DNA from: Escherichia coli
GTDB lineage: Bacteria; Pseudomonadota; Gammaproteobacteria; Enterobacterales; Enterobacteriaceae
Length of the DNA stretch: 64,000 bases
Assembly (NCBI RefSeq): GCF_024223415.1
Contig: NZ_CP100500.1
Reading direction: 5' to 3' (one strand)
A program made the position numbers and the translations under genes. Under the pieces are notes generated by a model that worked only from the letters and a program-made list of their open reading frames with translations, did no database searches and was not told where the DNA came from. Positions 460-61,385 of the stretch are shown here, one piece after another (within the stretch, counting starts at the first letter, position 1; each line of letters begins with the position of its first letter).

Positions 460-1342
460 GTGTTCCCCGCGCCAGCGGGGATAAACCGGTCAAATCGGTT
501 ACCTTAACCTGTTGAATGTGGTGTTCCCCGCGCCAGCGGGGATAAACCGAACGGCTACGGCACCGAGGTGACAAACCAGATGTGTTCCCCGCGCCAGCGG
601 GGATAAACCGAACTCCAGGATATTGCAAACCGCATAGTGGATGTGTTCCCCGCGCCAGCGGGGATAAACCGCCGTTGCGCTGGCATCGGGTGTACCTGTT
701 GTGGTGTTCCCCGCGCCAGCGGGGATAAACCGCCGTTGCGCTGGCATCGGGTGTACCTGTTGTGGTGTTCCCCGCGCCAGCGGGGATAAACCGGGCTTAC
801 ACGCCACCATGGCATCAAGAACGATGTGTTCCCCGCGCCAGCGGGGATAAACCGATTACGACTTCCGCACGCACCCACCGTTTGTAGTGTTCCCCGCGCC
901 AGCGGGGATAAACCGTTGGGCTAGGAGGAAGAGCATCATTAACATGGGTGTTCCCCGCGCCAGCGGGGATAAACCTGAGGCGGCTAAACCGTCGCGCACA
1001 CGAGCGACGTGTTCCCCGCGCCAGCGGGGATAAACCGCGTACTGCTTACTCCGTCATCGATGTATGAGTGTGTTCCCCGCGCCAGCGGGGATAAACCGTA
1101 CGTGTCGCCGTTACAGATTTCAGTCTGTTAGTGTTCCCCGCGCCAGCGGGGATAAACCGGGCGTCCAGTGATGCTTTCTGGTGCTCGAATAGTGTTCCCC
1201 GCGCCAGCGGGGATAAACCGCACGATTTTATGTGCCGCGTTGAGGCGTGGGCGTGTTCCCCGCGCCAGCGGGGATAAACCGGGCGCACTGGATGCGATGA
1301 TGGATATCACTTAGAATTCCCCGCCCCTGCGGTAGAACACCC
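460..1342 (+). CRISPR. Type I-E CRISPR array: 14 canonical 29-bp repeats GTGTTCCCCGCGCCAGCGGGGATAAACCG, one degenerate terminal repeat, 14 spacers of 32 bp (13 unique)
   Basis: Repeats start at 460, 521, 582, 643, 704, 765, 826, 887, 948, 1009, 1070, 1131, 1192, 1253 with exact 61-bp period. Terminal degenerate repeat 1314-1342 (GAATTCCCCGCCCCTGCGGTAGAACACCC, about 19/29 identity). Repeat 9 ends in T (976) instead of G. Spacers 672-703 and 733-764 are identical. Confidence 0.98.
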
Positions 1343-4989: not shown

Positions 4990-5594
4990 TGGCGCTGCAT
5001 GACGAAAACGTCGTCTGGCATAGCCATCCGGTCACTGTGCAACAACGCGAGCTACACCACGGTCATCGTGGTGTAGTGCTGTGGTTTACCGGCCTCTCCG
5101 GGTCCGGTAAATCAACGGTCGCCGGGGCGCTGGAGGAGGCGTTACATAAACTCGGCGTCAGTACGTATCTGCTGGATGGCGACAATGTTCGCCACGGATT
5201 ATGTAGCGATCTCGGTTTTAGCGATGCCGATCGTAAAGAGAATATCCGTCGCGTCGGTGAAGTGGCGAATTTGATGGTTGAGGCCGGACTGGTGGTGCTG
5301 ACCGCATTTATCTCGCCACACCGCGCCGAACGCCAGATGGTTCGTGAACGCGTAGGAGAAGGGCGCTTTATCGAAGTGTTTGTCGATACGCCGCTGGCGA
5401 TTTGCGAAGCCCGCGATCCAAAAGGCTTATATAAGAAAGCGCGTGCCGGTGAACTGGGCAACTTTACGGGAATAGATTCCGTTTACGAAGCGCCTGAATC
5501 GGCAGAAATTCATCTCAATGGTGAACAATTAGTAACAAATTTGGTACAGCAATTATTAGATCTGTTGAGACAGAACGATATTATCAGATCCTGA
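4989..5594 (+). CDS. cysC: Adenylylsulfate (APS) kinase
   Basis: 201 aa; P-loop GLSGSGKST; start overlaps cysN stop. Confidence 0.95.
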
Positions 5595-5643
5595 GACACC
5601 ACCGGGTTTCCATGCCCGGTTCGTCAAAGTAACAGGATCAAAT

Positions 5644-5967
5644 ATGCGTAATAGCCATAACATTACACTAACAAATAACGACAGCCTTACTGAGGATGAA
5701 GAAACCACATGGTCACTGCCTGGTGCCGTGGTCGGTTTTATCTCCTGGTTATTTGCGCTGGCGATGCCGATGTTGATTTATGGCTCTAACACGCTGTTCT
5801 TCTTTATCTACACCTGGCCTTTCTTTCTGGCGCTGATGCCCGTTGCGGTAGTGGTGGGGATTGCGCTGCATTCATTGATGGACGGAAAGCTACGCTACAG
5901 TATTGTTTTCACCCTGGTGACAGTAGGCATTATGTTTGGCGCACTGTTTATGTGGCTGCTGGGCTAA
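5644..5967 (+). CDS. ygbE: Small inner-membrane protein YgbE (DUF3561)
   Basis: 107 aa hydrophobic protein; same length and synteny as K-12 YgbE. Confidence 0.85.
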   Translation: MRNSHNITLTNNDSLTEDEETTWSLPGAVVGFISWLFALAMPMLIYGSNTLFFFIYTWPFFLALMPVAVVVGIALHSLMDGKLRYSIVFTLVTVGIMFGALFMWLLG

Positions 5968-6160
5968 TTTGTACTTTCCCGTCTCCTCTGTTCATAATTC
6001 AAACCGTAACTAATAATGAGATTATGTTCTGCACGCCCTGGGTATACGTAACAATGGACAAATGTGGTACATTTGCCCGCGTTGTCGCGGTATCCCCAAC
6101 AGAGGATGTAGAGTCGTCTTCGGATGCATGGGATGATGATGCCGTTTTTCAGGGGGCAGG

Positions 6161-8706: not shown

Positions 8707-8726
<20 letters not shown>
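7677..8726 (+). CDS. truD: tRNA pseudouridine(13) synthase
   Basis: 349 aa; matches TruD; overlaps ispF stop. Confidence 0.93.
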
Positions 8727-10088
<1,362 letters not shown>

Positions 10089-10227: not shown

Positions 10228-11367
10228 ATGAGCGCGGGAAGCCCAAAATTCACCGTTCGCCGCATTGCGGCTTTGTCACTGGTTTCGCTATGGCTGGCAG
10301 GCTGTTCTGACACTTCAAATCCACCGGCACCGGTCAGCTCCGTTAATGGCAATGCGCCTGCAAATACCAATTCTGGTATGTTGATTACGCCGCCGCCGAA
10401 AATGGGGACGACGTCTACAGCGCAGCAACCGCAAATTCAGCCGGTACAGCAGCCACAAATTCAGGCCACTCAACAACCGCAAATCCAGCCAGTGCAGCCA
10501 GTAGCTCAGCAGCCGGTACAGATGGAAAACGGACGCATCGTCTATAACCGTCAGTATGGGAACATTCCGAAAGGCAGTTATAGCGGCAGTACCTATACCG
10601 TGAAAAAAGGCGACACGCTTTTCTATATCGCCTGGATTACTGGCAACGATTTCCGTGACCTTGCTCAGCGCAACAATATTCAGGCACCATACGCGCTGAA
10701 CGTCGGTCAGACCTTACAGGTGGGGAATGCTTCCGGTACGCCAATCACTGGCGGAAATGCCATTACCCAGGCCGACGCAGCAGAGCAAGGAGTTGTGATC
10801 AAGCCTGCACAAAATTCCACCGTTGCTGTTGCGTCGCAACCGACAATTACGTATTCTGAGTCTTCGGGTGAACAGAGTGCTAACAAAATGTTGCCGAACA
10901 ACAAGCCAACTGCGACCACGGTCACAGCGCCTGTAACGGTACCAACAGCAAGCACAACCGAGCCGACTGTCAGCAGTACATCAACCAGTACGCCTATCTC
11001 CACCTGGCGCTGGCCGACTGAGGGCAAAGTGATCGAAACCTTTGGCGCTTCTGAGGGGGGCAACAAGGGGATTGATATCGCAGGCAGCAAAGGACAGGCA
11101 ATTATCGCGACCGCAGATGGCCGCGTTGTTTATGCCGGTAACGCGCTGCGCGGCTACGGTAATCTGATTATCATCAAACATAATGATGATTACCTGAGTG
11201 CCTACGCCCATAACGACACAATGCTGGTCCGGGAACAACAAGAAGTGAAGGCGGGGCAAAAAATAGCAACCATGGGTAGCACCGGAACCAGTTCAACACG
11301 CTTGCATTTTGAAATTCGTTACAAGGGGAAATCCGTAAACCCGCTGCGTTATTTGCCGCAGCGATAA
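10228..11367 (+). CDS. nlpD: Murein hydrolase activator lipoprotein NlpD (LysM + M23 peptidase domain)
   Basis: 379 aa; lipobox LAGCS; Gln/Pro-rich linker; LysM and LytM domains; directly upstream of rpoS. Confidence 0.95.
10423..10518 (+). repeat. Imperfect 24-bp tandem repeats (about 4 copies) encoding the Gln/Pro-rich linker of NlpD
   Basis: Units cagcaaccgcaaattcagccggta / cagcagccacaaattcaggccact / caacaaccgcaaatccagccagtg / cagccagtagctcagcagccggta, giving QQPQIQPV-like peptide repeats. Confidence 0.7.
10829..10857 (+). promoter_or_regulatory. Putative major rpoS promoter inside nlpD (-35 TTGCGT, 17-bp spacer, -10 TATTCT)
   Basis: Hexamers sit about 570 bp upstream of the rpoS ATG, consistent with the known long rpoS 5' leader; exact boxes are my assignment from sequence. 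Confidence 0.5.
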
Positions 11368-12422: not shown

Positions 12423-12437
12423 GTAAGCATCTGTCAG

Positions 12438-12470
12438 AAAGGCCAGTCTCAAGCGAGGCTGGCCTTTTTC
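12438..12470 (+). terminator. rpoS intrinsic terminator (GC hairpin + T-run)
   Basis: aaaGGCCAGTCTCaagcGAGGCTGGCCttttt directly after the rpoS stop. Confidence 0.75.
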
Positions 12471-12541
12471 TTTTGTTTGGGAAGCTTGTGTTTTTGTCGC
12501 CTGGATAAGACACGTCAGCGTCCTACCCGGCAATTTGCATC

Positions 12542-12949
12542 CTATGTGTTCATCATCTTGCGCACCAGCTGCACAAACAGCTCCTGCTCTTCTGCACTCA
12601 AACGCCCCAAAAATTCCTCATCCACGCTGTCACCAATCGGTATCGCCGCAGCAAGTATCTTTTCTCCTTCGGCAGTCAGCCAGACAAAGCGACGCCGCTT
12701 GTCAGCGGCATCATGTTCACGTCTGACTAAGCCACGATTCTCCATTCTTGCCAACATTTCTGCCAACGTTGCTTTGGTGCTGACTGCTGCTTCTATCAGT
12801 GCCACCTGTTCGATACCAGGCTTATCAGCAATGGCGCGCATCACCGCATACTGTGGTTTGGTCAGGTCAGGTAACTCGTGCTGCCAGCGAGCCGTGTGCT
12901 GCTGAAAAAGCTGTCGTAACTGATGGAACGCTTTATTTCGTAACGCCAT
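12542..12949 (-). CDS. MarR/SlyA-family transcriptional regulator
   Basis: ORF-track frame 12542-12982; Met at 12949 has a GGAG Shine-Dalgarno 7 nt upstream, giving about 135 aa. Winged-helix MarR-like sequence. Divergent from the decarboxylase operon. Confidence 0.8.
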   Translation of the reverse strand: MALRNKAFHQLRQLFQQHTARWQHELPDLTKPQYAVMRAIADKPGIEQVALIEAAVSTKATLAEMLARMENRGLVRREHDAADKRRRFVWLTAEGEKILAAAIPIGDSVDEEFLGRLSAEEQELFVQLVRKMMNT

Positions 12950-13064
12950 GTAAACTCCGGGCAAACTATCTGCCGCTATCATAGCGGTTTTTCAGTGACG
13001 AAGGGGATGTTGTTACTTTTCAGTGCTTGCCGCAATGAGAACAGAGGCGTATTTTAATAATAAT

Positions 13065-13078
13065 GTTCGTATACGAAC
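13065..13078. promoter_or_regulatory. Perfect 14-bp palindrome GTTCGTATACGAAC, candidate MarR-family operator
   Basis: Exact inverted repeat in the 113-bp divergent intergenic region, 18 bp upstream of the ecdB ATG. Confidence 0.5.
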
Positions 13079-13095
13079 AATTAAGAGAGTAAGCA

Positions 13096-13689
13096 ATGAA
13101 ACTGATCGTCGGGATGACAGGGGCTACCGGTGCGCCTCTTGGTGTGGCATTACTGCAAGCGCTGCGGGAGATGCCGAATGTCGAGACTCATCTGGTGATG
13201 TCGAAGTGGGCGAAAACCACCATTGAACTGGAAACGCCTTACAGCGCCCGCGATGTTGCTGCCCTCGCTGACTTCAGCCATAACCCGGCGGATCAGGCGG
13301 CGACCATCTCCTCAGGTTCCTTTCGTACCGACGGCATGATCGTTATTCCGTGCAGTATGAAAACGCTCGCCGGTATCCGCGCTGGTTACGCTGATGGCCT
13401 GGTAGGGCGCGCGGCGGACGTCGTGCTCAAAGAAGGCCGCAAACTGGTGCTGGTGCCGCGTGAAATGCCGCTTAGCACCATCCATCTCGAAAATATGCTC
13501 GCACTTTCACGCATGGGCGTGGCGATGGTGCCGCCGATGCCTGCCTTTTATAACCATCCCGAAACGGTAGATGACATTGTCCACCACGTGGTAGCCCGCG
13601 TGCTGGATCAATTTGGCCTTGAACATCCCTACGCCAGGCGCTGGCAAGGATTGCCGCAGGCCCGGAATTTTTCTCAGGAGAATGAATAA
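13096..13689 (+). CDS. ecdB: UbiX-like flavin prenyltransferase (Pad1 family), decarboxylase subunit B
   Basis: 197 aa; MKLIVGMTGATGA flavoprotein signature; TAATG overlap with the next gene. Confidence 0.85.
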   Translation: MKLIVGMTGATGAPLGVALLQALREMPNVETHLVMSKWAKTTIELETPYSARDVAALADFSHNPADQAATISSGSFRTDGMIVIPCSMKTLAGIRAGYADGLVGRAADVVLKEGRKLVLVPREMPLSTIHLENMLALSRMGVAMVPPMPAFYNHPETVDDIVHHVVARVLDQFGLEHPYARRWQGLPQARNFSQENE

Positions 13690-15116
13690 TGGCATTTGAT
13701 GATTTACGCAGCTTTTTACAGGCGCTTGATGACCACGGCCAGTTACTGAAAATCAGCGAAGAGGTGAACGCGGAACCGGATCTGGCTGCCGCTGCCAACG
13801 CCACCGGGCGTATCGGCGATGGTGCACCGGCGCTGTGGTTTGATAATATTCGCGGTTTTACCGATGCCCGCGTGGCGATGAATACCATCGGTTCCTGGCA
13901 GAACCACGCGATTTCCTTGGGCCTGCCGCCAAACACCCCGGTTAAAAAACAGATTGATGAGTTTATCCGCCGCTGGGATAACTTCCCGATCGCCCCGGAG
14001 CGCCGCGCCAATCCAGCCTGGGCGCAGAACACCGTCGATGGTGACGAGATTAATCTGTTCGATATCCTGCCGCTGTTTCGTTTAAACGACGGTGATGGCG
14101 GTTTCTATCTCGACAAAGCGTGCGTGGTTTCCCGCGATCCGCTCGACCCGGATAACTTCGGCAAGCAGAACGTCGGCATCTACCGCATGGAAGTGAAGGG
14201 CAAGCGTAAGCTCGGCCTGCAACCGGTGCCGATGCACGATATCGCCCTGCATCTGCATAAAGCAGAAGAGCGCGGTGAAGATCTACCGATTGCGATCACG
14301 CTCGGTAACGATCCGATCATCACGCTGATGGGCGCAACGCCACTGAAATACGATCAATCTGAGTACGAAATGGCAGGCGCGCTGCGTGAAAGCTCGTACC
14401 CGATCGCCACCGCCCCGCTGACCGGTTTTGATGTGCCGTGGGGTTCAGAAGTGATCCTCGAAGGGGTCATCGAAAGCCGTAAACGCGAAATCGAAGGGCC
14501 GTTCGGTGAGTTTACCGGACACTACTCCGGCGGGCGTAACATGACCGTGGTGCGCATCGATAAAGTCTCTTACCGCACCAGGCCGATTTTCGAATCGCTG
14601 TACCTCGGCATGCCGTGGACCGAAATCGACTACCTGATGGGGCCAGCCACCTGTGTGCCGCTGTATCAGCAACTGAAAGCCGAGTTCCCGGAAGTGCAGG
14701 CGGTAAACGCCATGTACACCCACGGCCTGCTGGCGATTATCTCCACCAAAAAACGCTACGGCGGCTTTGCCCGCGCGGTGGGCCTGCGTGCGATGACCAC
14801 GCCGCACGGTCTGGGCTACGTAAAGATGGTGATTATGGTCGATGAAGACGTTGACCCGTTCAACCTGCCGCAGGTGATGTGGGCGCTCTCCTCGAAAGTA
14901 AATCCGGCAGGGGATTTGGTGCAGTTGCCGAATATGTCCGTGCTGGAACTCGACCCTGGCTCAAGCCCGGCGGGGATCACCGACAAGCTGATTATCGACG
15001 CCACCACGCCTGTCGCCCCGGACAACTGTGGTCACTACAGCCAGCCGGTGGTGGATTTGCCGGAAACCAAAGCCTGGGCTGAAAAACTGACCGCTATGCT
15101 GGCTGCACGTAAATAA
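13689..15116 (+). CDS. ecdC: UbiD-family (prFMN-dependent) aromatic acid decarboxylase, subunit C
   Basis: 475 aa; UbiD-like; operonic with the UbiX-like gene. Confidence 0.85.
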   Translation: MAFDDLRSFLQALDDHGQLLKISEEVNAEPDLAAAANATGRIGDGAPALWFDNIRGFTDARVAMNTIGSWQNHAISLGLPPNTPVKKQIDEFIRRWDNFPIAPERRANPAWAQNTVDGDEINLFDILPLFRLNDGDGGFYLDKACVVSRDPLDPDNFGKQNVGIYRMEVKGKRKLGLQPVPMHDIALHLHKAEERGEDLPIAITLGNDPIITLMGATPLKYDQSEYEMAGALRESSYPIATAPLTGFDVPWGSEVILEGVIESRKREIEGPFGEFTGHYSGGRNMTVVRIDKVSYRTRPIFESLYLGMPWTEIDYLMGPATCVPLYQQLKAEFPEVQAVNAMYTHGLLAIISTKKRYGGFARAVGLRAMTTPHGLGYVKMVIMVDEDVDPFNLPQVMWALSSKVNPAGDLVQLPNMSVLELDPGSSPAGITDKLIIDATTPVAPDNCGHYSQPVVDLPETKAWAEKLTAMLAARK

Positions 15117-15126
15117 GGAGAACAAG

Positions 15127-15363
15127 ATGATTTGTCCACGTTGTGCCGATGAACAGATTGAAGTGATGGCGAAATCGCCGGTGAAAGATGTCTGGACGGT
15201 ATATCAGTGCCAGCATTGCCTTTATACCTGGCGCGATACCGAACCGCTGCGCCGTACCAGCCGCGAACATTACCCTGAAGCGTTCCGCATGACGCAGAAA
15301 GATATTGATGACGCGCCAATGGTGCCGAGCATCCCGCCGCTGCTGGCGGCAGATAAGCGCTAA
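15127..15363 (+). CDS. ecdD: Small decarboxylase subunit D (Cys-rich, zinc-ribbon-like)
   Basis: 78 aa with CPRC...CQHC motifs; 10 bp after ecdC stop. Confidence 0.75.
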   Translation: MICPRCADEQIEVMAKSPVKDVWTVYQCQHCLYTWRDTEPLRRTSREHYPEAFRMTQKDIDDAPMVPSIPPLLAADKR

Positions 15364-15403
15364 TAAAAAGTGCCGGGTAGTGGCTTTGCTTTACCCGGCC
15401 TCA

Positions 15404-16060
15404 TTACTTTATTTTATAAAATGACAGCCGCCCGCTTTTCGGCGATCCGGTATCAATATAAATCTGGTTAGCGAACGTCTGAATGTTATCAAACATCATA
15501 TGTCCAAATATAAAATAATCAGCGCCGTTTATTTGTTGTAACTCGCCATTAAGCGATTTCTGCACACGATCAACAGGCCAGAGTAATTCGCTCTCCGCTA
15601 TTTCTTTACCAAAGAGATATTCACTCCCCGGATAATCTGCATGTGCGATGACATATTTTATATTGTCGTTAGTGATTTCAATAATATGTGGAAGGTGATG
15701 GAATTTCAGCAACAGATCTGTAGCTTCTTTTTGCTCTGAATCATTTAAATCGAAAAACCAGTCACCACCGCTGGCAAGCCACATATTTCCATCGCCAGTT
15801 TCGAATGCATCAAGCGCCATCGCTTCGTGGTTGCCTTTAACGGAGATAAACCAGGGCTGGTTTAGCAGGCGCAGGACGTTAAGACTCTCCGGCCCACGAT
15901 CAATATTATCGCCGACAGAAATAAGTAAGTCGGTTTCGGGGAAAAAAGAGAGTTGATGTAAGCGGGATTGTAATAACTGATATTCACCATGAATATCACC
16001 AACGACCCATATATGGCGATAGTGATGGGCATTGATTTTTTGATAGCGTGTAGATGGCAT
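15404..16060 (-). CDS. pphB: Serine/threonine protein phosphatase 2
   Basis: 218 aa; metallophosphatase motifs GDIHG and GDNIDRG; next to mutS. Confidence 0.9.
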   Translation of the reverse strand: MPSTRYQKINAHHYRHIWVVGDIHGEYQLLQSRLHQLSFFPETDLLISVGDNIDRGPESLNVLRLLNQPWFISVKGNHEAMALDAFETGDGNMWLASGGDWFFDLNDSEQKEATDLLLKFHHLPHIIEITNDNIKYVIAHADYPGSEYLFGKEIAESELLWPVDRVQKSLNGELQQINGADYFIFGHMMFDNIQTFANQIYIDTGSPKSGRLSFYKIK

Positions 16061-19396: not shown

Positions 19397-19825
19397 TTAC
19401 GCTTTGGTGGCAATCAGGATGGCTGATGCTTTGATCAATGCAATAACGCGTGAGCCAGTGGTGAGTTTCATTTCATCCTGACTTTCATTTGTTACCACTG
19501 CCACAATTTCAAAACCCGCATCCGTTTTGATATGGACAGTGGCGTTCACTGCGCCTTCGGTGATTGTCGACACGCTGCCAGCAAACTGGTTGCGAGCAGA
19601 GAATTTCAGTCCACAGTCTTCCGTTGCCAGCGTTACCCACGGGGCTTTAATCAGGGCAATCGCTTCTTTCCCTTTCGCCAGACCCAGAGCCTGCTGGCTG
19701 CTGTGAGTCACAATTGCCACCAGCTTTGCACCACCTGCCAGCGTCAGTTCTAATTCGTCATTCACCGCGCCCATTGCTACTGCGCTAACTGTTCCGGTTA
19801 ATTGATTTCTTGCTGAAACTGCCAT
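19397..19825 (-). CDS. Two-domain Mop/TOBE molybdate-binding protein (molbindin)
   Basis: 142 aa from ATG 19825 with AAAGGAGG Shine-Dalgarno 5 nt upstream. Two tandem ~70-aa halves each beginning SARNQ(L/F)(T/A)G(T/S)VS. 44 bp downstream of fhlA stop, same strand. Confidence 0.85.
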   Translation of the reverse strand: MAVSARNQLTGTVSAVAMGAVNDELELTLAGGAKLVAIVTHSSQQALGLAKGKEAIALIKAPWVTLATEDCGLKFSARNQFAGSVSTITEGAVNATVHIKTDAGFEIVAVVTNESQDEMKLTTGSRVIALIKASAILIATKA

Positions 19826-41135: not shown

Positions 41136-41220
<85 letters not shown>

Positions 41221-57815: not shown

Positions 57816-57908
57816 GGTGAGGTGGCCGAGAGGCTGAAGGCGCTCCCCTGCTAAGGGAGTATGCGGTCAAAAGCTGCATCCGGGGTTCGAATCCCCGCCT
57901 CACCGCCA
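57816..57908 (+). tRNA. serV: tRNA-Ser (anticodon GCT)
   Basis: 93 nt GGTGAGGTGGCCGAG...CACCGCCA with long variable arm and anticodon loop cuGCUaa. Confidence 0.95.
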
Positions 57909-57911
57909 TTT

Positions 57912-57988
57912 GCATCCGTAGCTCAGCTGGATAGAGTACTCGGCTACGAACCGAGCGGTCGGAGGTTCGAATCCTCCCGGATGCACCA
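57912..57988 (+). tRNA. argV: tRNA-Arg (anticodon ACG), copy 1
   Basis: 77 nt GCATCCGTAGCTCAGCTGGATAGAGTACTCGGCTACGAACCGAGCGGTCGGAGGTTCGAATCCTCCCGGATGCACCA; 3 bp after serV. Confidence 0.95.
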
Positions 57989-58123
57989 TATTCTCCGTAA
58001 CCTTCAGCGATGAAGGTATGGAAGAGGTGGCGGTACTAACCGCAGGCACCAGGGAGGATAACGTTGCTTTAGCAACGGCCCGAAGGGCGAGCCGCAAGGC
58101 GAGTAATCCTCCCGGATGCACCA
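57989..58123 (+). repeat. tRNA-array spacer module X (copy A), ending in an 18-nt tRNA-Arg 3'-end fragment (58106-58123)
   Basis: Has hairpins ACCTTC-agcgat-GAAGGT and CGTTGC-ttta-GCAACG, then ATCCTCCCGGATGCACCA identical to the tRNA-Arg 3' end. Confidence 0.7.
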
Positions 58124-58187
58124 TCTCTTACTTGATACAGCTTTAGTAGCGGTATCAAAAAATCTGCAGTAAAGTAAGTTTCCCGAT

Positions 58188-58264
58188 GCATCCGTAGCTC
58201 AGCTGGATAGAGTACTCGGCTACGAACCGAGCGGTCGGAGGTTCGAATCCTCCCGGATGCACCA
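58188..58264 (+). tRNA. argY: tRNA-Arg (anticodon ACG), copy 2
   Basis: Identical 77-nt sequence; 199-bp spacer after copy 1. Confidence 0.95.
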
Positions 58265-58326
58265 TCTCTTACTTGATATGGCTTTAGTAGCGATATCAAT
58301 ATCAGCAGTAAAATAAATTTCCCAAT

Positions 58327-58403
58327 GCATCCGTAGCTCAGCTGGATAGAGTACTCGGCTACGAACCGAGCGGTCGGAGGTTCGAATCCTCCCGGATGCA
58401 CCA
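58327..58403 (+). tRNA. argZ: tRNA-Arg (anticodon ACG), copy 3
   Basis: Identical 77-nt sequence; 62-bp spacer after copy 2. Symbol assigned by order only; could correspond to argQ. Confidence 0.9.
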
Positions 58404-61312: not shown

Positions 61313-61385
61313 AAAAAGGCCACTCGTGAGTGGCCAAAATTTCATCTCTGAATTCAGGGATGATGATAACAAATGCGCGTCTTTC
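61313..61385 (-). ncRNA. micA: MicA (SraD) small regulatory RNA
   Basis: Minus-strand GAAAGACGCGCATTTGTTATCATCATCCCTGAATTCAGAGATGAAATTTTGGCCACTCACGAGTGGCCTTTTT matches MicA from memory, including its terminator hairpin; conserved gshA-luxS location, divergent from luxS. Confidence 0.92.

Follow-up and report, generated by a model that had tools for sequence, protein, structure and literature searches.

A gene cluster between rpoS and pphB in Escherichia coli is very probably a HosA-controlled hydroxyarylic acid decarboxylase locus

Decarboxylases of the UbiD family that act on free phenolic acids belong to a group with solved structures, and in the enzymes of Sedimentibacter and Bacillus, for which direct enzymology is described, the catalytic subunit VdcC needs both VdcD and prFMN and decarboxylates 4-hydroxybenzoate (4-HBA) and vanillate (PMC8379154). 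In E. coli the regulator HosA has been crystallised and is used in biosensors. The HosA of strain UMN026 is freed from its DNA by 4-HBA, with a KD of about 4.7 μM, whereas close analogues of 4-HBA evoke no response. HosA is described as repressing the hydroxyarylic acid decarboxylase (HAD) operon as well as itself, with 4-HBA as the inducer (Roy and Ranjan 2016, as related in a preprint that cites it). It has also been tied to motility in EPEC, and its regulon may therefore exceed the decarboxylase operon. The chromosomal interval between rpoS and mutS has been known to be polymorphic since about 1999-2000 and serves as a typing marker; one of its arrangements was defined as pattern I in the o454-nlpD typing scheme (PMC4209514).

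We analyzed a window of 64,000 nucleotides from an E. coli genome (contig NZ_CP100500.1), the whole of which is meant wherever the window is named below. The segment at 12423-15403 corresponds exactly to the 2,981 bp between the stop codons of rpoS and pphB: base 12423 is the first after the rpoS stop codon and base 15403 the last before that of pphB (15404-15406). It contains four intact genes, hosA and those of subunits B, C, and D (Table 1), and RefSeq annotates the same four in strain SCU-316, whose genome is 100% identical. No RNA families were detected inside the block with Rfam at the gathering threshold. We conclude with high confidence that this segment is the HosA-controlled non-oxidative HAD locus of E. 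coli, for which we propose a mechanism below.

Table 1. Features located in and around the segment between rpoS and pphB (positions are those of the window)
Feature	Position	Strand	Basis
Intrinsic terminator hairpin of rpoS	12436-12469	+	Terminator scan: 15-pair stem, then T run
REP-like palindromic element flanked by the rpoS terminator and the hosA 3' end	12503-12530	+	Sequence
hosA, MarR-family repressor predicted to sense 4-hydroxybenzoate	12542-12949	minus	PDB 8AGA, Pfam MarR, PGAP
15-bp palindrome in the hosA 5' region	12973-12987	.	Sequence scan
Sigma-70-like promoter candidate for BCD (ATGAGA, 18 nt, AATAAT)	13035-13064	+	Promoter scan, 9/12 matches
Predicted HosA operator, 14-bp palindrome	13065-13078	.	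Inverted repeat, 100% complementary arms
Subunit B, UbiX-type flavin prenyltransferase predicted to make prFMN	13096-13689	+	PDB 1SBZ, NCBIfam VdcB
Subunit C, UbiD-type decarboxylase, catalytic, predicted to be prFMN dependent	13689-15116	+	NCBIfam VdcC, PDB 7AE4, Pfam
Subunit D, predicted zinc-ribbon activator of subunit C	15127-15363	+	NCBIfam VdcD, PDB 7AE4 chain a
Inverted repeat in the 40-bp subunit D-pphB spacer, likely pphB terminator	15372-15399	.	Sequence read

The identities of the proteins are settled by near-identical solved structures together with curated family models. HosA is identical at 133 of 135 residues to the protein in PDB 8AGA ("Transcriptional regulator HosA"), the differences being I98V and V126M, and its winged-helix domain clears the threshold of the Pfam MarR family (45.4 versus 24.6 bits). 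An alternative open reading frame of 146 amino acids begins at 12982; the 135-residue form is the one that fits both the crystallised HosA and the PGAP annotation, in which these coordinates are assigned to a regulator of the MarR family. The gene stands tail-to-tail with rpoS. Subunit B is identical at all 197 residues to 1SBZ, the structure of "Pad1" from O157:H7, and it exceeds the cut-offs of the VdcB model (NF041206; 311 versus 290 bits) and of models for UbiX subfamilies (257.8 versus 188 and 246.8 versus 108.9 bits). Subunit C matches VdcC (NF041204; 785.6 versus 650 bits; E = 1e-236; residues 4-469 of 475), aligns over its full length (residues 3-471) with ShdC/VdcC in PDB 7AE4 (E = 1.6e-159), and is above threshold for each of the Pfam families UbiD_N, UbiD, and UbiD_C. 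Its catalytic and metal/prFMN-binding motifs NVGIYR (161-166), MHD (182-184), and EGPFGE (269-274) have identical counterparts in the ShdC alignment, with N161/R166, H183, and E269/E274 all kept, and NVGIYR and EGPFGE supply what PMC8379154 describes as the ERE triad. Subunit D, which is only 78 amino acids long, scored 121.2 bits for VdcD (NF041205; cut-off 30) and matches ShdD (chain a of 7AE4) with E = 3.5e-11; its four cysteines (C3, C6, C28, and C31) form two CXXC knuckles and coincide with the zinc ligands of ShVdcD reported in PMC8379154. The three genes follow one another on one strand and are coupled in translation, with a one-base overlap between B and C (ATGA) and a 10-nt gap between C and D, in which AGGAG precedes subunit D.

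The original prediction, made from the DNA letters and their open reading frames, had placed between rpoS and pphB a divergent MarR-family gene followed by three overlapping or tightly spaced genes for UbiX-like, UbiD-like, and small Cys-rich proteins. The open reading frames and PGAP agree on the first of these, and the spacing and family models given above bear out the other three: the matches to the UbiX and UbiD families lie far beyond chance, and four cysteines in 78 residues make "small Cys-rich subunit" an accurate description. Passing the NCBIfam cut-offs for VdcB, VdcC, and VdcD alike, the genes are the non-oxidative HAD set that had been proposed. What had been called a MarR/SlyA-like regulator can now be named more sharply as HosA, a protein with solved structures, a known ligand, and a mapped operator. 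For this reason the accompanying remark that little is settled about substrate and role is only partly true, since the ligand to which the regulator responds, 4-HBA, was already established along with the operator.

The region between hosA and the decarboxylase operon contains, just upstream of subunit B, the palindrome GTTCGTATACGAAC. Oligonucleotides used in PMC6261655 mark this core as the HosA binding site, and judged by its sequence the palindrome is the published operator. The core is conserved among the window, the L003 allele, and the UMN026 probe. One flanking base differs from UMN026 (T rather than C at 13064), and the operator thereby grows to a perfect 16-bp palindrome (13064-13079) in this allele. 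Another palindrome, CCGCTATCATAGCGG, lies in the hosA 5' region and is identical in the window and in L003, an allele of 95% identity. The assignment of a promoter to BCD is tentative because the scan returned promoter-like sites in this region at the frequency expected by chance, and the candidate was chosen for its match to the consensus.

We propose that a HosA dimer would sit on GTTCGTATACGAAC, with the likely -10 element on one side and the first gene's ribosome-binding site on the other, and would there block transcription of both the BCD operon and hosA. On entering the cell, 4-HBA would bind HosA and take it off the DNA, a response that is carried over to this allele from the HosA of UMN026, and B, C, and D would then be transcribed as a single, tightly coupled unit. 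Subunit B would prenylate reduced FMN to prFMN, which would be taken up by subunit C as a UbiD-type hexamer, while the zinc-ribbon subunit D would bind C and fix its Glu-Arg-Glu catalytic loops. The resulting C-D complex would convert 4-HBA to phenol and CO2 in a reversible reaction and would probably also convert vanillate to guaiacol. Ligand, repression, and enzyme chemistry are taken in this scheme from the literature on identical or near-identical proteins, and for activity of the E. coli BCD enzyme it would lean on Lupa et al. (2005) and on Roy and Ranjan (2016). Literature searches on 4-hydroxybenzoate decarboxylase, phenol, and rpoS found nothing particular to the rpoS-pphB locus. The benefit to the cell, like the exact promoter, we can only infer; it may lie in the detoxification or use of phenolic acids derived from plants or preservatives in the gut.

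It is possible, if unlikely, that a different hydroxyaromatic acid is the true substrate (protocatechuate, gallate, or vanillate, for instance) or that the enzyme acts mainly as a carboxylase, forming 4-HBA from phenol at high CO2. Enzymes of this family can run in both directions and have wide substrate ranges, VdcCD accepting both 4-HBA and vanillate (PMC8379154), and proteins of the KpdB/D and EcdB/D types boost the protocatechuate decarboxylase AroY. However, subunit C is much nearer to ShdC, an enzyme of 4-HBA and vanillate, than to protocatechuate decarboxylases (E = 1.6e-159 versus about 1e-24 to 1e-26), and the cognate regulator answers to 4-HBA rather than to its close analogues. The names EcdBCD have been applied to proteins of Enterobacter cloacae as well, and HAD operon or VdcBCD/KpdBCD-type are less ambiguous.

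K-12 MG1655 shares with the window only the first 46 bases after rpoS, which comprise the rpoS terminator; this is the last DNA in common on the rpoS side, with homology stopping at 12468 and restarting at 15405. In the block's position MG1655 carries 6.1 kb before pphB with the genes ygbN-ygbM-ygbL-otnK-ltnD-ygbI. Alignment with MG1655 therefore confirmed the original statement that K-12 has ygbI-N here, and the block itself is absent from K-12. In a set of 5,426 complete E. coli genomes, 2,379 (44%) contain the block. It is joined directly to pphB, as in the window and in O157:H7, in only 804 of the 5,426, and about 1,575 have both the block and ygbN-ygbI; the original wording "instead of ygbI-N" is true for this window, while roughly two-thirds of the carriers hold the block besides those genes. 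The resemblance to O157:H7 that had been proposed also stood, the arrangement being pattern I of PMC4209514: subunit D stops at 15363 and pphB at 15404, no ygb genes lie between them, and ygbN (o454) is missing. Bases 15376-15404 are confined to the direct junction of subunit D with pphB, and homology to pattern IV stops at 15375. The spacer at this junction holds the inverted repeat GCCGGGTA...TACCCGGC, which is likely the pphB terminator because a T run comes after it on the minus strand. At the other junction, the REP-like pattern, which the element at 12503-12530 matches by construction, has a second copy at 41191-41218, with 0.01 expected by chance.

This patchy presence raises the question of whether the block is a recent genomic island, acquired for example from Shigella, rather than an ancestral segment that was lost in K-12-like lineages. 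One preprint does claim horizontal acquisition from Shigella, the same module is found on a Pantoea megaplasmid, and a REP-like element and hairpins mark the block's junctions. However, no integrase, transposase, or tRNA was found at the block borders in the gene and open reading frame annotation, the GC content of the block (55.4%) is set against 53.4% for the window, and the four-gene module also occupies the rpoS-mutS interval of Salmonella and Klebsiella. The identical-codon fraction relative to Salmonella was 0.47-0.78 for the block and 0.58-0.78 for flanking core genes, as fits divergence since the genera split. The title of Herbelin et al. (2000) likewise speaks of gene conservation and loss. 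With no mobility genes and a core-like divergence from Salmonella, we rejected the mobile island as improbable. The four-gene module seems to have resided between rpoS and mutS for a long time and to have been lost in some lineages, because its synonymous divergence from Salmonella and Klebsiella resembles that of the flanking core genes. In Salmonella the module is inverted, yet it occupies the same interval, a pattern that would be consistent with junctions of hairpin or REP-like type having been rearranged repeatedly.

That B and C might be a spare UbiX/UbiD pair for ubiquinone synthesis, decarboxylating 3-octaprenyl-4-hydroxybenzoate rather than free phenolic acids, is highly improbable, since subunit C, although the two proteins belong to the UbiX and UbiD superfamilies and C matches E. 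coli UbiD structures at E = 2e-46, reaches just 173.5 bits on the UbiD equivalog model (NF008175; cut-off 788) against 785.6 on VdcC, is accompanied by a VdcD-type subunit that was not associated with ubiquinone UbiD in the equivalog search or the literature read, stands beside a regulator that senses free 4-HBA, and is missing with the rest of the block from the majority of E. coli genomes, among them K-12. K-12 makes ubiquinone despite missing the block. From these family scores, subunit C is a paralogue of UbiD and not UbiD itself.

The regulator, its ligand 4-HBA, the operator, the enzyme family, and the polymorphism of the locus have all been published, and in this sense the locus is already known and ordinary. 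The main value of the analysis is one of annotation, as it assigns the window to the O157:H7-type class of the rpoS-mutS mosaic. A further prediction is that the strain can turn 4-HBA into phenol and that it cannot use L-threonate or D-erythronate via ygbI-N (the ltnD/otnK pathway). A wider significance is doubtful: presence of the module could make the phenol output of E. coli in the gut, or its tolerance of parabens and plant phenolic acids, strain dependent; control by HosA beyond the operon could make stress or motility phenotypes vary with the polymorphism; and the junctions could have been rearranged repeatedly.

Among described systems, the 2.9-kb rpoS-proximal segment of O157:H7 and EHEC 1 (slyA/hosA-pad1-yclC) has the same genes, order, and pphB junction, also without ygbN-ygbI, and differs from the window in nothing of substance. 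However, the strain of the window has a TOBE-domain gene between ygbA and fhlA, and PMC4209514 lists this gene (c3292) in CFT073 and E2348/69 and not in EDL933, which makes the surrounding region a different mosaic. The HosA-HAD systems of uropathogenic UMN026 and of EPEC E2348/69, known from Roy and Ranjan (2016) and from HosA structures that include 8AGA, share with the window the operator core GTTCGTATACGAAC and the divergent layout of hosA and BCD, whereas strains of the E2348/69 type (pattern IV) have the block followed by ygbN-ygbI, which the window lacks. VdcBCD of Streptomyces D7, BsdBCD of Bacillus subtilis, ShdBCD of Sedimentibacter hydroxybenzoicus, and KpdBCD of Klebsiella have the B-C-D three-gene architecture in common with the window, together with a prFMN-dependent UbiD-type C subunit and a four-cysteine zinc-ribbon D subunit; the Gram-positive enzymes are more distant (subunit D against ShdD, E = 3.5e-11) and are not paired with HosA. 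The Klebsiella C subunit is 96.6% identical to that of the window. AroY and LpdBCD, which act on protocatechuate and gallate, are UbiD-family enzymes that need a UbiX-type partner and are distant from subunit C (E about 1e-24 to 1e-26), and LpdD is unrelated to VdcD (PMC8379154). UbiX and UbiD of ubiquinone synthesis belong to the same two superfamilies as B and C and share their prFMN chemistry, but the substrate of that UbiD is polyprenylated, whereas the system described here would act on a free phenolic acid and includes, in addition, subunit D and a MarR regulator of its own.

The whole of the DNA separating the stop codons of rpoS and pphB (12423-15403; 2,981 bp) proved to be the segment for which the original prediction had claimed a MarR-family gene and three decarboxylase genes, and the open reading frame (ORF) list agrees with that claim. 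So does the RefSeq annotation of strain SCU-316, which among 5,426 complete E. coli genomes searched with megablast carries a 100% identical copy; at the same positions it has a regulator of the MarR family together with the B, C, and D subunits of a non-oxidative hydroxyarylic acid decarboxylase. The B and C genes overlap in ATGA and a gap of 10 nt containing AGGAG separates C from D, a tight coupling consistent with C and D being made in stoichiometric amounts.

Positions of features in the window (from the ORF list for genes of the rpoS-pphB interval)
Feature	Coordinates	Strand	Remarks
CRISPR array	460-1281		14 repeats (GTGTTCCCCGCGCCAGCGGGGATAAACCG, 61-bp period); upstream of iap/cysDNC region
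surE	8707-9468		5285-6046 in the strain SC487 locus
nlpD tandem repeat	10426-10488		24 bp, 2.6 copies; encodes glutamine/proline-rich QQPQIQ repeats
rpoS	end 12422
REP-like palindromic element	12503-12530		between rpoS terminator and hosA
hosA (MarR type)	12542-12949	minus	135 aa; in-frame upstream ATG at 12982 gives 146 aa
Shorter palindrome	12973-12987		CCGCTATCATAGCGG
Perfect inverted repeat	13064-13079		TGTTCGTATACGAACA
Subunit B	13096-13689	plus	197 aa
Subunit C	13689-15116	plus	475 aa
Subunit D	15127-15363	plus	78 aa
Hairpin	15372-15399
pphB	15404-16060	minus	stop codon 15404-15406; mutS comes next
TOBE-domain gene	about 19397-19825		molybdopterin-binding-like; between ygbA and fhlA
REP-like palindromic element, second	41191-41218
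tRNA-Ser(GCT) and three tRNA-Arg(ACG) in a 139-bp tandem repeat; MicA sRNA gene	57816-58403 and 61314-61385		ordinary E. coli features

The UbiX/UbiD-family and small-subunit identities held, as all three proteins exceeded the NCBIfam cut-offs: VdcB for subunit B (311 bits; cut-off, 290), VdcC for subunit C (785.6; 650), and VdcD for subunit D (121.2; 30). Subunit B is identical at 197/197 residues to PDB 1SBZ, the structure of "Pad1" from E. coli O157:H7. Pfam finds all three UbiD domains in subunit C, residues 3 to 471 of which align to the catalytic subunit of Sedimentibacter hydroxybenzoicus (7AE4; E = 1.6e-159); assignment as the ubiquinone-biosynthesis UbiD equivalog was rejected, the score being 173.5 bits against a cut-off of 788. 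The NxGxYR motif (N161, R166), H183, and the EGPFGE motif (E269, E274) are kept, and these conserved residues include the Glu-Arg-Glu triad named as catalytic in PMC8379154. Subunit D aligns with ShdD, the small subunit of the S. hydroxybenzoicus enzyme, and its cysteines C3, C6, C28, and C31 are the counterparts of the four zinc ligands described for that subunit (ShVdcD) in the same paper.

The regulator, predicted to be MarR/SlyA-like, does have a Pfam MarR domain and can be named more closely: it matches crystallized HosA (8AGA and six further entries) at 133/135 residues, a protein with a known ligand and operator. The 146-bp spacer between hosA and the B gene holds a single perfect inverted repeat. 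The oligonucleotides of PMC6261655 contain its 14-bp core, GTTCGTATACGAAC, as the HosA binding site, and the flanks around it there (CAGAGGCGTATTTTAATAATAAC...AATTAAGAGAATAAACATGAG) clearly correspond to window positions 13041 to 13100 in the version found in uropathogenic strain UMN026. A second, shorter palindrome is conserved between alleles. The HosA site lies immediately 3' of a weak -10-like AATAAT and 17 nt ahead of the B start codon. This placement agrees with a preprint that, citing Roy and Ranjan (2016), describes the site as downstream of the transcription start and working as a roadblock. In that preprint and other published reports, HosA represses the decarboxylase operon and itself, and 4-hydroxybenzoate (KD, about 4.7 uM) frees it from DNA, close analogues being ineffective.

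Combining the sequence evidence with this literature, we propose a model whose enzyme chemistry has been demonstrated in homologues rather than in this strain. HosA would repress the operon until 4-hydroxybenzoate induces it; subunit B would supply prFMN to subunit C, the predicted prFMN-dependent decarboxylase, with subunit D as its putative obligatory allosteric zinc-ribbon partner. The complex would convert 4-hydroxybenzoate reversibly to phenol and probably vanillate to guaiacol (PMC8379154).

In K-12 MG1655, 46 bases (the rpoS terminator) are shared with the window and are followed by ygbN, ygbM, ygbL, otnK, ltnD, ygbI, and pphB, a ygbN-ygbI stretch of ~6.1 kb; the block is missing, as the original prediction stated. 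The gap falls precisely between the rpoS and ygbN terminators, and homology restarts with the second base of pphB's stop codon (TAA in the window, TAG in K-12), so that the breakpoint lies exactly inside that codon. The block is present in 2,379 of the 5,426 genomes and ygbN-ygbI in 4,577; D adjoins pphB directly, as in the window, in 804. Replacement of ygbI-N by the block was correctly called for the window, but across E. coli coexistence is the commoner state (about 1,575 of the 2,379 carriers, i.e., 2,379 minus 804), exemplified by SC487 (rpoS-hosA-BCD-ygbN...ygbI-pphB). In a fourth arrangement, genes for a flavodoxin and an MBL-fold hydrolase sit in place of hosA-BCD; where the flavodoxin gene ends, this B2-type arrangement also has a sequence related to the REP-like element. 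PMC4209514 describes the same four patterns, the window being pattern I (O157:H7/EHEC 1 type), in line with the original prediction's reference to O157:H7, and the same 2.9-kb hosA-pad1-yclC segment is found in EPEC (PMC5491219).

The flanks vary as well. surE differs from that of SC487 by 9% of nucleotides, against 0.5% for neighboring rpoS and nlpD, a contrast that points to mosaic recombination flanking the variable segment. pphB has a GC content of just 41.6%, versus 53.4% for the window. The TOBE-domain gene, which K-12 lacks and 1,889/5,426 E. coli genomes carry, is a second presence/absence polymorphism near the block. As c3292, it is given in PMC4209514 for CFT073 and E2348/69 and not for EDL933, so that in the window strain the rpoS side is of the O157 type and the fhlA side is not. 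The position of the CRISPR array is likewise occupied by such an array in K-12.

Cross-genus context came from PLSDB records labeled as plasmids that are really chromosomes or chromosome fragments; mislabeled records include E. coli entries of 4.8 to 4.9 Mb and Klebsiella pneumoniae CP125156.1 (5.37 Mb), along with a Salmonella "plasmid 2" of 728 kb on which rpoS, nlpD, and cysN are present. In Salmonella Senftenberg NZ_LN868944.1 (7833-11712 of the extracted locus), the four-gene module adjoins rpoS within the rpoS-mutS interval and is inverted relative to E. coli, with subunit D toward rpoS and the MarR gene toward ygbI; neighboring ygb-type sugar-acid genes are likewise reversed relative to rpoS. 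In K. pneumoniae, rpoS is followed in order by three other genes, MarR-BCD, hok, and mutS, and in Pantoea sp. At-9b the module is carried by a 794-kb megaplasmid. Divergence from Salmonella, measured as the fraction of identical codons among identical amino acids, is about equal in the block (hosA, 0.47; B, 0.47; C, 0.65; D, 0.78) and in its core neighbors (rpoS, 0.78; nlpD, 0.62; pcm, 0.58; surE, 0.64; truD, 0.63). One preprint proposed a recent transfer of the block from Shigella. This core-like divergence, the absence of mobility genes from the block in the annotation of the identical SCU-316 locus, and a GC content of 55.4% versus 53.4% for the window argue against such a transfer and favor the block as an old resident of the rpoS-mutS interval that some E. 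coli lineages would later have lost.

The original prediction is confirmed as an observation and supported in its interpretation, with three refinements. The first two are the naming of the regulator as HosA and the finding that coexistence with ygbI-N is commoner; the third is that the role, described as poorly defined, is better defined than claimed. Since every component has been published, the system is an already known one.
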